Below, one piece after another: positions 6,001 through 9,000 of a stretch of DNA of 64,000 bases. Where the stretch lies: NCBI RefSeq assembly GCF_024502345.1, contig NZ_JALDNN010000003.1. One strand, given 5' to 3'. The DNA comes from Escherichia coli (lineage in GTDB: Bacteria; Pseudomonadota; Gammaproteobacteria; Enterobacterales; Enterobacteriaceae). Within the stretch, counting starts at the first letter, position 1; every line of letters begins with the position of its first letter. The position numbers are program-made.

Positions 6001-9000
6001 TAAGCGAGAAATTACGGATAAAGATAAACGTCAGCACGCAATAGATCAAGACTGGCCTACTTACAGGTTGGGTATTGAGTATCTTGGTGCAAAAAAGGCT
6101 GGATGGCGGATCCATTGGCTGGCGCCAAGCACTTATTCTGTCGTTGAGATGATTTATAAATCTGTTCGAGAATTGACCTCTGGGTTCCGTAAAACGATTC
6201 AGGGCTTCAGAGATTCTAATTTCACTAATATGCTCCCAGGTAAGATCGCTGATTTTCCTGATGAATGGATTGAGCAAAATTATCTTGAAGACATCATGTT
6301 TAGTGGTTCTGGTGGCTCCAGGAATGATCTTGGAAAGAGTATTCGGAATTCCATTGGCTTTGTTGAATAAATCAGATTTCGGGTAAGTCTCCCCCGTAGC
6401 GGGTTGTGTTTTCAGGCAATACGCACGCTTTCAGGCATACCTGCTTTCGTCATTTTGTTCAGCGCTCGTACCAGGGCCATAGCCTCTGCAACCTGACCAT
6501 CGTAGTCACGCAGTGTCAGTGAACCCCCGAACAGCTGTTTTACCCGGTACATCGCCGTTTCCGCTATCGAGCGACGGTTGTAATCTGTTGTCCATTTCCA
6601 CCGCGCATTACTCCCGGTCATTCGCTGATTAGCCACTGCACGGTTACGGTCTGCATATTCACCGGGCCAGTAACCCGCACCTTTTCGGGGAGGGATAAGC
6701 GCGCTGATTTTCTTACGCCGCAGTTCATCGTGACATAGCCGGGTATCGTAAGCGCCATCGGCGGCGGCTGACCTGATTTTCCGGTGGGTTTGCCGGATTA
6801 ACCCGGGGAAGGCCTCTGAGTCCGTAACGTTGTTCAGCGACAGGTCAGCGCAGATGATTTCATGTGTTTTACTGTCAACGGCGAGATGCAGCTTACGCCA
6901 GATACGGCGGCGTTCCTGGCCATGCTTTTTGACTTTCCACTCGCCTTCACCGAAGACCTTCAGCCCGGTGGAATCAATTACCAGGTGTGCGATTTCACCC
7001 CGGGTGGGCGTTTTGAAACTGACATTAACCGACTTTGCCCGCCTGCTGACACAGCTGTAATCCGGGCAGCGTAGCGGAACGTTCATCAGAGAAAAAATGG
7101 AATCAATAAAGCCCTGCGCAGCGCGCAGGGTCAGCCTGAATACGCGTTTAATGACCAGCACAGTCGTGATGGCAAGGTCAGAATAGCGCTGAGGTCTGCC
7201 TCGTGAAGAAGGTGTTGCTGACTCATACCAGGCCTGAATAGCTTCATCATCCAGCCAGAAAGTTATGGAGCCACGGTTGATGAGGGCTTTATTGTAGGTG
7301 GGCCAGTTGGTGATTTTGAACTTTTGCTTTGCCACGGAACGGTCTGCGTTGTCGGGAAGATACGTGATCTGATCCTTCAACTCAGCAAAAGTTCGATTTA
7401 TTCAACAAAGCCGATTTTGGAATTTCCCCTACCATAATCTGGTAGCTACACATTCACTCGCAGAGATTAATCGCTTTAACATAATTAGTGCCAGCACTGA
7501 GTCCTTTAAAATTATAAATCCATGTTCTATCCATAACGTCGTGCCATTGCTCCTTTCGGTGTTCACTGCAAACGGGAGCAGGAATTCCGTTGCAGTTCTT
7601 CGGCCGCCTGCTGTTGCAGCACGACCATCACTCTGCTGAGCATTGTCAGCGCCTGGGAAGGGGAACCGCCAAACGTCAATTTGATTTCGTTGGTGGTGTG
7701 GTGCTGTTCCAGGTCGAGAATATTTACTTCCACGTCTGCGCCCTTCTCATCCTTAGCCGTACAATGAATGCTGACCCGGGTCACCGGGTCCTTAACTGTC
7801 TGCAATGGTTTCTTCGTGCTGATGTTGATTGCGGTATTCTTCATTGCCCTGTTTCTCCTTGACCAGTGGTGGTAACCGACCCTACCGGGTGGCGGGGTCA
7901 GTCAGGAAATCATGCCTGGCCCTTGTTCTGCTTTTCAGCATGTTTACGCAGGTACTGCGTCAGATCGCCGTGAGCTTCACAAATGGCATTCATCTCGTCA
8001 TTGGTCAGCACCAGAGTGTAAGTATCGTCGCTGAGGTTCTTAGCGGCCCGTTGTTTAGCTTCTTCCGCAATACGCGAAAACAGCGGGATTGCCGTGTCCG
8101 CAATCGTCGTCACGGTCTTTTTGTTCAGTACGCTGGAGACCGACACAGCTTTAGGCTCTGGCGTTTTGACCGGGTCTTTCATCTGCGGTGCCGGGGTCCT
8201 TTCCGGGGTCGGCTCCGGGTTAGTGCCCGCACTCCCGTCCACCAGCTGCGGTGGGGTGGTCTCATCGTTAGTACCTTCGCCGGACGTTTGTTCAGTCACG
8301 GTGGTTTCCGGGGGGGTCGCATTTGCGTCCGGCACGATGGCTGCTTTCGGCTTCATCGCTGCATCAATGTTGCCAGCTTTGACGAATTTCAGGGTTTTGG
8401 CCGTCGCCTTACCATAAACATCAATGGCTTTGGTGATGTTGTTGACCGCTTCATCGCCGCTGTAAAGGTATTCATCCAGCGCGACATACATACTCACTTC
8501 ACCCTTCACCAACATGGCCTGGAGGGCTTCAGGCAGATCCAGGACGCGAACCATCTGACGCAGGTGCTGTTCGGTTTTACCGCGACGCTTCGCCAGTTCA
8601 GCGAACGTTTTGGGTTCTTCCGCGTCTTCAACCATCCGTTTGATGGAGAGCGCCTCAGCTACGACAGACAGAGCCAGATTTGAGTTACCGTCCAGCGTAA
8701 ACTGCTCGGCACTGGCGCGGCTACCGCGAAACTCCTCGCATCGAATTAACGTGATCAATTCACGCCCTTCATCTGCCAGCTCGATGTTTGCCATCGCGAC
8801 GGCACGGATACGGCATGCTCCCTGGCGCAGGACCGGACGGCCATTCAGAATCTGTACGACAATAGCTTGTACGCTTAAAGGATCGATCTTGTAGGACTCT
8901 TTCAGGCTGTTCAGGTGGGCTACCACGTCAGGTAATGAGTAGTAACTCTCCCCAATGCCAGCAGTACGGGTGTTAAACCCCTCTTCCTCTTCGACCACTG

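Follow-up and report, generated by a model that had tools for sequence, protein, structure and literature searches.

A complete IS903B element without target-site duplication very probably marks a deletion joint between a dif-associated recombinase operon and IncHI2 backbone DNA in Escherichia coli

The stretch of DNA analysed here (hereafter the window) comprises 64,000 nucleotides of contig NZ_JALDNN010000003.1 from an Escherichia coli assembly (GCF_024502345.1). Its left part contains an insertion sequence, a dif-like Xer site and an operon of recombinase genes, followed by a complete IS903B element and IncHI2 backbone. Gene 1 of the operon (2054-3577, + strand) encodes a divergent tyrosine recombinase of 507 amino acids, recognized from conserved motifs and a weak match to NF040815; the motifs GLRVGE, HVGRHTW and LGGW...Y are conserved in a four-way alignment. 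It overlaps by 44 nt with gene 2 (3534-5210, + strand), the 558-residue product of which is a tyrosine recombinase that matches the integrase model NF041502 (E = 2.6e-24); tyrosine recombinase motifs are seen in gene 2, and its homologues carry PF00589. Gene 2 also overlaps with gene 3 (5207-6355, + strand), a truncated recombinase gene that is cut after codon 383 of 845, the intact length being that of the copy in ON934556 and of the copy in locus L003 when reconstructed with its IS taken out. The open reading frame of gene 3 continues for four codons into the IS repeat and stops at a TAA codon at 6368-6370, the product ending in ...SIGFVE. A fourth core gene of this module is present in relatives and absent from the window.

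Sequence searches with gene 3 against Pfam, NCBIfam and the PDB gave no match, and motif and fold evidence was therefore used. In an alignment of the gene 3 family (27 homologues), R252, H509-x-x-R512-H513 and Y544 are invariant. In addition, Cre, XerH, lambda Int and Tn1549 Int account for all of the 34 best PDB fold matches of the predicted structure, with probabilities of 0.80-1.00 (at least 0.98 for 30 of the 34) and E values from 4e-3 to 0.14; the model has low confidence across residues 516-561. The label of recombinase given to gene 3 in the initial annotation is thus borne out by the invariant catalytic residues and the fold matches, and the assignment of its predicted product to the tyrosine recombinases, from the R...HxxR...(H/W)...Y signature and the Cre/Int fold, holds up. 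The part of gene 3 retained in the window has R252 and lacks H509, R512 and Y544; the gene has lost the catalytic half containing HxxR...Y.

The conserved sequence of the recombinase element begins at the XerD arm of a dif-like Xer site (GGTGCGCATAA-CAAAGA-TTATGTTAAAT; 1892-1919, + strand), which was identified from its motif arms and from a published target list, the same 28-mer being an IS1202-family target in Table 8 of PMC10132070. No inverted repeats were found for the 24-bp stretch upstream of the conserved element sequence; this stretch was therefore recognized as a dif-like site, and its interpretation as an IS terminus was rejected. A second dif-like site, at the right end of the element, was found neither in ON934556 nor in the window. 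On the other side of the site lies the right-hand part of an ISLad2-type element of the IS1202 family (1-1886, - strand; NF033594, E = 2.7e-152), with its transposase at 435-1793 and its left part beyond the window. This element ends in ...TAACA, 5 bp (ATCTT) short of the XerC arm. ISLad2, ISKpn21 and a third, unnamed ISNCY-type element all end 5 bp from the XerC arm upstream of gene 1, and ISKpn21 in locus L004 has a 5-bp duplication.

Gene 3 is truncated by IS903B, the transposase gene of which is on the - strand. An 18-bp terminal inverted repeat, GGCTTTGTTGAATAAATC, is located at the transposase-distal end (6356-6373, + strand), and its exact reverse complement is located at the transposase-proximal end (7395-7412, - strand); the element therefore extends from 6356 to 7412, or 1057 bp. 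The length and the intact repeats reported initially were confirmed by reading the sequence and by a pattern search for GGCTTTGTTGAATAAATC, in which up to three mismatches were allowed. Exactly two copies were found in the 64 kb, both of them IS903B ends (0.05 expected by chance; two or more copies in 0 of 100 shuffles), and the window therefore contains a single IS903 copy. The 1057 bp are 100% identical to at least 5000 records, including annotated IS903B copies, with the annotation 'IS5-like element IS903B family transposase' on many plasmids. The intact transposase ORF (6412-7380, - strand; 322 amino acids) is of the DDE type and matches NF033579 (IS5 family transposase) over positions 1-289 of 289 (E = 6e-107), as well as DDE_Tnp_1 and DDE_Tnp_1_5 (PF01609 and PF13737). 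Judging from its sequence, the copy is complete and presumably active.

The element is flanked on the left by AATTCCATT (6347-6355, + strand), the last nine bases of retained gene 3, and on the right by GATTTTGGA (7413-7421, + strand), the first bases of the IncHI2 backbone. These abutting 9-mers are identical at only two of nine bases, in agreement with the initial observation that they differ. A displaced boundary might have concealed a duplication; however, no abutting direct repeat appears when either IS903B boundary is moved by -8 to +8 bases, and the claim of a missing duplication stands. The sole similarity between the flanks is an 8/9 match between TTCGGAATT, which ends 5 bp left of IS903B, and TTTGGAATT, which begins 3 bp to the right; being non-abutting, this pair was rejected as a target-site duplication. 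Two IS1-bounded insertions served as internal controls, with perfect 9-bp duplications of TTAAATTTG (12416-12424 and 14890-14898) and GAAATACCG (28654-28662 and 29431-29439). The missing 9-bp duplication bears on the history of this IS903B copy and not on its family membership.

Uninterrupted versions of both flanks were located. In intact gene 3 the left flank reads AATTCCATT/GCGAAC (locus L001, 9780-9794), and in uninterrupted IncHI2 backbone the right flank reads ...AAAATGACG/GATTTTGGA (CP022495, L002 8016-8024), the slash marking the position of the IS boundary. Each 9-mer thus continues into other DNA in its empty site, and the two are halves of two different sites. Matches to IncHI2 records in megablast seem to begin at 7400, inside the IS end, which is a chance extension (ATTCAAAAAATGACG versus ATTCAACAAAGCC). 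The backbone to the right of the element (7413-12424, + strand; a DNA-binding protein, hok and others) is collinear with CP022495 and ON934556. An alignment of intact homologues across the junction, as proposed initially, placed the flanks at two collinear sites. The strand and order that the module and the backbone right of 7413 have in the window are also those of ON934556 and CP081775, where the two lie approximately 86 kb and approximately 45 kb apart, respectively. This arrangement in two relatives excludes an inversion joint, and the sequence comparison indicates that IS903B very probably marks the site of a deletion, as opposed to that of an inversion or simple insertion. In the relatives, the interval contains the 3' part of gene 3, gene 4, defence and fimbrial cargo, umuDC, trhH, traG-N, mobI, mobH and traD; absence of this DNA was checked within the 64-kb window, and it is the relatives that supply the size and content given for the loss. 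The initial claim that the 3' part of gene 3 and the DNA beyond it were removed is supported, and the relatives add the fourth core gene and name the further content. None of the comparators has an intact gene 3 together with the exact GATTTTGGA target: ON934556 does not contain the DNA corresponding to 7413-7437 of the window, the GATTTTGGA site of CP081775 has been lost to IS1, and CP084057, the third comparator, is of the same lineage as ON934556 and adds nothing on the target site. The window starts 6.3 kb left of IS903B, and for the module in the source replicon we infer the ancestral position.

Both actual junctions are absent from 72,556 plasmids (PLSDB) and 5,426 complete E. coli genomes, and exact-pattern scans gave no matches for the left junction in metagenome contigs or for the right junction in genome contigs. 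The hypothetical reciprocal or progenitor junctions (IS end plus AATTCCATT plus the rest of gene 3; backbone plus GATTTTGGA plus IS end) likewise had no contiguous BLAST match in the 72,556 plasmids or the 5,426 E. coli genomes, and their patterns, each scanned in one of the metagenome and genome contig collections, had no exact matches. In relatives, IS903B or IS903-like copies occupy other positions in gene 3, or lie within gene 4 or a short way downstream of it. The IS903B copy of L004 (E. coli chromosome CM132257), at gene 3 codon 841, is oriented as in the window and has no duplication.

An adjacent deletion promoted by IS903 is favoured as the route to this joint, at about even probability. 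Such deletions are documented for IS903 via a cointegrate-type pathway, according to PMC11708052, which cites Weinert et al. (1983). In the proposed sequence of events, the dif-associated recombinase element would already have had an IS903B copy in or beside gene 3, as several relatives do, and this copy would have undergone one or two intramolecular replicative transposition events. An IS end would attack a target on its own molecule; the IS would be kept, and the stretch separating it from the target would be released as a circle and lost. IS903B would then connect AATTCCATT in gene 3, as its old flank or as a newly attacked target, to the attacked backbone target (GATTTTGGA), and would be left without a flanking duplication. 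The copies in relatives, including that in L004, fit a resident element that erodes its surroundings stepwise, and a route by two new insertions and subsequent recombination would call for more undocumented events than adjacent deletion does.

The two-insertion route is possible, if somewhat unlikely. Two same-orientation IS903B insertions, one in gene 3 with AATTCCATT duplicated and one in the backbone with GATTTTGGA duplicated, followed by RecA-dependent recombination that deleted the interval, would give an end product identical to the observed sequence. Recombination between IS copies is a recognized cause of missing duplications (PMC11708052), and the IncHI2 relatives have two or three IS903B copies in the region, so that multiple copies per plasmid are usual. 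However, three events are needed and both insertions are absent from all searched records. Furthermore, relative to the operon, the IS903B copies of ON934556 and CP084057 point the other way, and the copy in the window is 100% canonical and without mosaic polymorphism. Because IS903B has no hybrid polymorphisms, the two mechanisms are inseparable by sequence, and the IS-mediated deletion or inter-IS recombination put forward in the initial annotation is supported as a pair. The product of a further route, in which IS903B entered a double-strand break in one step in the course of a deletion independent of the IS, would also be indistinguishable from that of an adjacent deletion. In E. coli C, a deletion of 62 kb has been described at which a new copy of IS5 (IS903 subgroup) is present and a duplication is lacking (PMC11708052); the break-insertion mechanism is, however, only a hypothesis in that paper, and it is considered highly improbable here.

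Other explanations dispense with the deletion itself. If the source replicon had two or more IS903B copies, each with its own duplication, a short-read assembler could have joined the left flank of one to the right flank of another through the collapsed 1057-bp repeat: IS903B is multicopy (median 2 and up to 47 places per IS903B-carrying E. coli genome), no searched collection has the junction pair, and losing every Tra1 gene, as seems to have happened, would be drastic. Such a chimera is nevertheless quite improbable, given that no sign of misassembly is seen in the window, where two IS1 copies are resolved with correct duplications, and that natural IS-bounded deletions of a like kind are common. 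It is very unlikely that nothing was lost and that, after cointegrate formation or translocation, the rest of gene 3 (AATTCCATTGCGAAC...) and the backbone (...AATGACGGATTTTGGA) flank a second IS903B elsewhere in the same molecule. IS903 is able to form cointegrates, and the left 6.3 kb is nearest to one plasmid lineage (the CP081775 family, 99.9% identity), with a generic IncHI2 right flank, which makes a mosaic origin conceivable. However, the IncHI-type backbone is also present in CP081775, with order and orientation unchanged, and one replicon type thus explains both flanks; a merger of two IncHI2 plasmids, which are incompatible, is less probable, and no second IS903B occurs within 56.6 kb to the right. 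A simple insertion with misjudged boundaries, or with a 9-bp duplication decayed by point mutation, has a negligible probability: it could draw on the non-abutting similarity alone, the IS ends are exact, the agreement at the abutting position is minimal, and the spacing of the empty sites in the relatives refutes it.

If an adjacent deletion or one of the equivalent routes produced the joint, the cargo and right end of the recombinase element, umuDC and the whole Tra1 region (trhH, traG, mobI, the mobH relaxase and the traD coupling protein) would have been lost, to judge from the relatives, and by inference oriT together with Tra1. Provided that the loss of Tra1 is real, the result would be a replicating plasmid that is not self-transmissible and contains an immobilized element remnant; the lack of self-transfer would be relevant to judging its spread. 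The deletion would also inactivate a mobile, defence-carrying recombinase element, and would be one more case of IS903B eroding accessory DNA on large plasmids. The junctions ...GGAATTCCATT/GGCTTTG and CAAAGCC/GATTTTGGAATTT... occur in none of the plasmids and complete E. coli genomes searched and are therefore a specific marker for this plasmid lineage. An IS903B-bounded deletion is a well known kind of event, and its value here is practical rather than conceptual.

The dif-abutting four-gene module is a better lead than the IS903B joint. Its core consists of three tyrosine recombinases (approximately 500, 550 and 845 amino acids) and a protein of approximately 150-170 amino acids. It was found on the chromosome of an E. 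coli, exactly at the dif sequence of that species, on Aeromonas and Vibrio parahaemolyticus contigs, two of which have filamentous-phage genes beyond the site, and on large enterobacterial plasmids, IncHI2 plasmids among them. All loci examined have a complete dif or dif-like Xer site directly at the left end of the module, with the XerD arm adjoining. The centre of this site is the canonical TGTATA in the four chromosomal or contig loci, and their XerC arm varies from host to host; among the five plasmid-type loci (the window, L001, L003, L005 and L006), the 6 bp at the centre change from one locus to the next. Defence systems are abundant in the cargo, namely CBASS, Hachiman, BREX and restriction genes. 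It is conceivable, although doubtful, that the truncated gene belongs to a family of integrative elements for which no description was found. If so, these elements would use recombinases of their own to hijack or mimic dif and would share the site with dif-targeting IS1202-family elements, and the IS903B event would have fossilized one copy of a dif-abutting recombinase element.

The individual components of the locus can be compared with known systems. The insertion sequence is IS903B of the IS5 family, IS903 group, having the same 1057-bp sequence, 18-bp perfect inverted repeats and single DDE transposase; it differs from a simple IS903 insertion in having no 9-bp target duplication, whereas the related copy in L003 has TATAGCTGG. 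The joint resembles the IS903 adjacent deletions of Weinert, Schaus & Grindley (1983), as they are described in PMC11708052, in its single retained IS, missing duplication and joining of distant collinear sequences. It differs from them in that no precursor was observed, the route is deduced, and the size of 45-86 kb comes from the relatives. The ISLad2-type element behaves at the neighbouring dif-like site as has been described for dif and pdif targeting by the IS1202 family (ISAba32 subgroup; PMC10132070; bioRxiv 10.1101/2022.12.17.520857). This targeting is already described and concerns the neighbour of the deletion joint, not the joint itself.

[quoted passage not shown] However, the second SE protein (Tfp) has no catalytic motif, whereas gene 2 is the clearest integrase of the module, and none of the module proteins or replicons occurs in the complete SE list (Additional file 3 of PMC10214605), the tfp-srap synteny list; membership was rejected on these grounds. 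GMT islands (GmtY/Z/X) combine two recombinases with a protein that has an N-terminal StbA-like DNA-binding domain; the gene content of the module does not map cleanly onto theirs, and its accessions are absent among the GMT supplement entries and the cluster members listed. The GInt islands (ginABCD; Bardaji et al., 2017, PMC5385486) have the same plan, in which three co-oriented tyrosine-recombinase-like genes are followed by a small fourth gene. The operon is located at the 5' end of the island, the cargo follows the fourth gene and the third protein is usually annotated as hypothetical. GInt islands are also characterized by imperfect direct repeats of 10-11 nt at both ends and by GinA-D homologues; the present likeness concerns the gene plan seen in relatives, the operon of the window being cut in gene 3. 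In contrast to GInt, gene 3 of the module keeps the first arginine, and the module abuts a dif-like site, whereas the GInts of Pseudomonas insert in an ABC-transporter gene.

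The IS903B copy at 6356-7412 is delimited by the terminal repeat GGCTTTGTTGAATAAATC at 6356-6373 and by its exact reverse complement at 7395-7412, as read directly from the sequence of 6200-7600, and the element bounded by these repeats measures 1057 bp, in agreement with the initial annotation, which had described the inverted repeats as intact. These 1057 bp are 100% identical to IS903B-annotated copies in many enterobacterial plasmids (at least 5000 matching records), and an intact minus-strand ORF (6412-7380) encodes a full-length IS5-family DDE transposase of 322 amino acids. 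A pattern search allowing up to three mismatches found no repeat copies beyond these two in the 64 kb window, compared with 0.05 expected by chance; thus, a single IS903B copy is present there. The flanking 9-mers differ, as had been claimed (AATTCCATT on the left and GATTTTGGA on the right). The possibility, raised at that time, that a shifted boundary conceals a duplication was examined by sliding either boundary by up to eight bases, and no abutting direct repeat appeared on either side. A non-abutting 8/9 similarity was observed between TTCGGAATT (6342-6350), which ends 5 bp left of IS903B, and TTTGGAATT (7416-7424), which begins 3 bp right of it, and each of the two lies around a GGAATT(T)CC near-palindrome; this likeness is not a target duplication and may reflect IS903 target preference or chance (roughly 0.03-0.1 expected by our estimate).

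Two IS1-bounded insertions in the window served as an internal control and retain perfect 9 bp duplications, indicating that duplications have not generally decayed in this DNA; a decayed target duplication at IS903B was excluded. The first comprises an IS1 (12425-13192) and a 1.7 kb unit with a corA-like magnesium-transporter gene (13291-14256, minus strand), which together (12425-14889) are flanked as a whole by TTAAATTTG at 12416-12424 and 14890-14898, and this IS1 seems to have carried adjacent, apparently chromosomal, DNA into the backbone. The second IS1, at 28663-29430, is inverted and flanked by a normal duplication, GAAATACCG.

To the left of IS903B, positions 1-6355 match a segment of a 303 kb E. 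coli plasmid family (for example CP081775) at 99.9% identity and contain part of an ISLad2-type IS1202-family element (transposase at 435-1793), a dif-like site (1892-1919) and three genes in one orientation whose ends overlap (2054-3577, 3534-5210 and 5207 onwards). In relatives, a 167-codon fourth gene follows a gene 3 of 845 codons (ON934556 and the plasmid-type locus L003, the latter length being taken after in silico removal of an inserted IS). The copy in the window is cut after codon 383, its frame continuing for four codons into the IS repeat (...SIGFVE*). Alignment of an intact homologue across the junction, the check originally proposed, showed that uninterrupted gene 3 reads AATTCCATT|GCGAAC at this site. 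To the right, IncHI2-type backbone begins at 7413 (over 7413-9200, 204 plasmid records reach at least 99% identity); when uninterrupted, this backbone has AAAATGACG directly before GATTTTGGA (CP022495). An apparent BLAST extension of the backbone into the IS end was rejected as a chance match. Since each flank is continuous with other DNA in uninterrupted relatives, IS903B joins halves of two different sites.

ON934556, an IncHI2-type plasmid with an intact four-gene module, carries the module at 76226-71759 and the backbone found right of the IS at 230317-172922, on the same strand and 85.8 kb apart through the record origin. The plasmid closest to the left flank is CP081775, whose module stops at 9789; from about 55 kb the backbone is again collinear, on the same strand. 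IS1 has removed the target site itself there, gene 3 is truncated near codon 671 and the annotation shows no gene 4. An inversion joint would set the inverted far end of the interval against the IS. Here the near backbone end lies in direct orientation beside the IS, giving a structure A-IS-B with the interval missing, so that IS903B is read as marking a deletion rather than an inversion or insertion. The collinear flanks in these two plasmids support the earlier proposal that an IS-mediated deletion removed the 3' part of gene 3 and DNA beyond it. In both plasmids the remainder of gene 3 falls within the interval, together with gene 4 in ON934556. Element cargo is present in both plasmids (in ON934556, PilZ/EAL genes, mrk fimbriae, Hachiman, a restriction gene and BREX), as are umuDC and the transfer genes trhH, traG-N, mobH and traD, with mobI additionally in CP081775. 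The size and content of the loss are estimated from these relatives, the window reaching only 6.3 kb left of the IS, short of the module's backbone context; no comparator combined an intact gene 3 with the exact 25 bp of 7413-7437.

IS copies lacking duplications are usually ascribed to adjacent deletion or to inter-copy recombination, and IS903 promotes adjacent deletions by a cointegrate-type (replicative) pathway needing both ends (PMC11708052). Both routes yield exactly the product seen. Adjacent deletion is favoured, at about even probability, because it invokes fewer events that were not seen, the 64 kb contain a single copy, and IS903B or IS903-like copies occur across the 3' part of the module in relatives: at about codon 665 of gene 3 in L003, flanked by a proper duplication (TATAGCTGG); at codon 841 in the E. 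coli chromosomal locus L004 (NZ_CM132257.1), oriented as in the window; in gene 4 in CP084057; and downstream of gene 4 in ON934556 and CP084057. Under adjacent deletion, a resident copy would erode its neighbourhood stepwise, which these scattered copies fit. Recombination between two direct IS903B copies, with the same end product, is a possible but distinctly less probable route. Both real junctions and both hypothetical reciprocal junctions were absent from the collections searched for each of them. An assembly chimera through the IS903B repeat, a fusion or translocation in which nothing was lost, and insertion of IS903B into a break during an unrelated deletion are all improbable.

At 10832-11888, the L004 copy is independent of the one in the window and likewise has no duplication, being flanked by TCCAGGATC and ACGGTCAGG. 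Here the recombinase element is connected through IS903B to a truncated ydfV of the Qin prophage, in what looks like another IS903B-bounded deletion adjoining this module. In the IncHI2 plasmid CP022495 (L002, 1-3301), an ISNCY transposase gene and a Shedu gene, a pair resembling the kind found at the dif-like hot spot in other plasmids, are connected via IS1B with the DUF905 region found close to the right flank in the window; this suggests that the same two backbone regions are recurrently rearranged through IS. Both the phenomenon and the IS are already known; the IS903B-bounded joint is of value as a lineage marker and as a probable cause of lost self-transmissibility.

Gene 3, annotated as hypothetical in RefSeq, had no match in profile libraries or in a PDB sequence search. 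Its description as a recombinase was nevertheless upheld by aligned homologues (27 sequences, 45-100% identical, the majority from Vibrionaceae, Aeromonas and Shewanella), in which R252 in a GFRFQE box, H509-V-P-R512-H513, G534-R535, Y544 and a Cys-rich C-terminal extension are invariant, and by its AlphaFold model (mean pLDDT 72, poor across 516-617), whose leading PDB fold matches are all tyrosine recombinases (Cre, XerH, lambda Int and Tn1549 Int). Together with the box I and box II-like motifs of genes 1 and 2 and PF00589 in gene 2 homologues, this justifies the name recombinase trio. The copy in the window retains R252 and lacks the HxxR...Y half, and its product is thus incapable of catalysis.

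In all loci examined, gene 1 is preceded, at a distance of about 100-300 bp, by a complete dif or dif-like Xer site, always with the XerD arm, at which the conserved element sequence begins, facing the operon. The site in the window (1892-1919) is GGTGCGCATAA-CAAAGA-TTATGTTAAAT; others lie at 4993-5020 in L004, which has the exact E. coli dif adjoining hipA, and at about 4760-4787 in L012, 4539-4566 in L014/L015 and 17093-17120 in the plasmid-type locus L006. In Aeromonas and V. parahaemolyticus the XerC arm differs and the TGTATA centre is the same, and IncHI2 and other plasmids have dif-like variants with differing central 6 bp. A second dif-like site, which would mark the right end, was looked for in ON934556 and not found. 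Three IS1202-family elements end in ...ACA 5 bp from the XerC arm: ISLad2 in the window (1-1886, with 1887-1891), whose unit, to judge by a weakly matching terminal repeat, appears to extend over about 5.3 kb and to include an FRG-domain gene; ISKpn21 in L004 (2709-4986), with a 5 bp duplication, TATAT, and a DUF6904 passenger gene; and an unnamed element in L006 (about 13519-17087) carrying an S-4TM effector gene and a hypothetical gene. Dif-like sites have been published as targets of this subgroup (PMC10132070; bioRxiv 10.1101/2022.12.17.520857), and the 28-mer of the window is in a published target table (PMC10132070). Between the window (about 1884-1908) and CP081775 (L001, about 5317-5341), otherwise identical over 6356 bp, all six mismatches fall within about 20 bp, covering the 5 bp IS flank, one XerC-arm base and the central 6 bp (ATCTT-GGTG...-CAAAGA versus GACTT-AGTG...-GATGGA); the cluster resembles the outcome of a site-specific exchange at the dif-like site more than that of point mutation. 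A limited search found no literature on a three-recombinase module linked to dif, and this dif-abutting module is a lead deserving a separate look.

The cargo 3' of the four-gene module consists mostly of defence systems (L012, 13509-18502; L014/L015, 10986-16302; L006 and L016), including CBASS (SAVED-SMODS-Cap2-JAB), a VPA1267-family gene with a helicase, AAA_15/DUF4435, Hachiman, BREX-1 and a restriction endonuclease. Identity with the SE family was rejected, as the non-catalytic gene of SEs is the second one and the module proteins and replicons are absent from the complete published SE list. Its gene content could not be matched cleanly to that of GMT islands. In gene plan, the module resembles GInts, islands that carry cargo behind three recombinase-like genes and one small gene at their 5' end.
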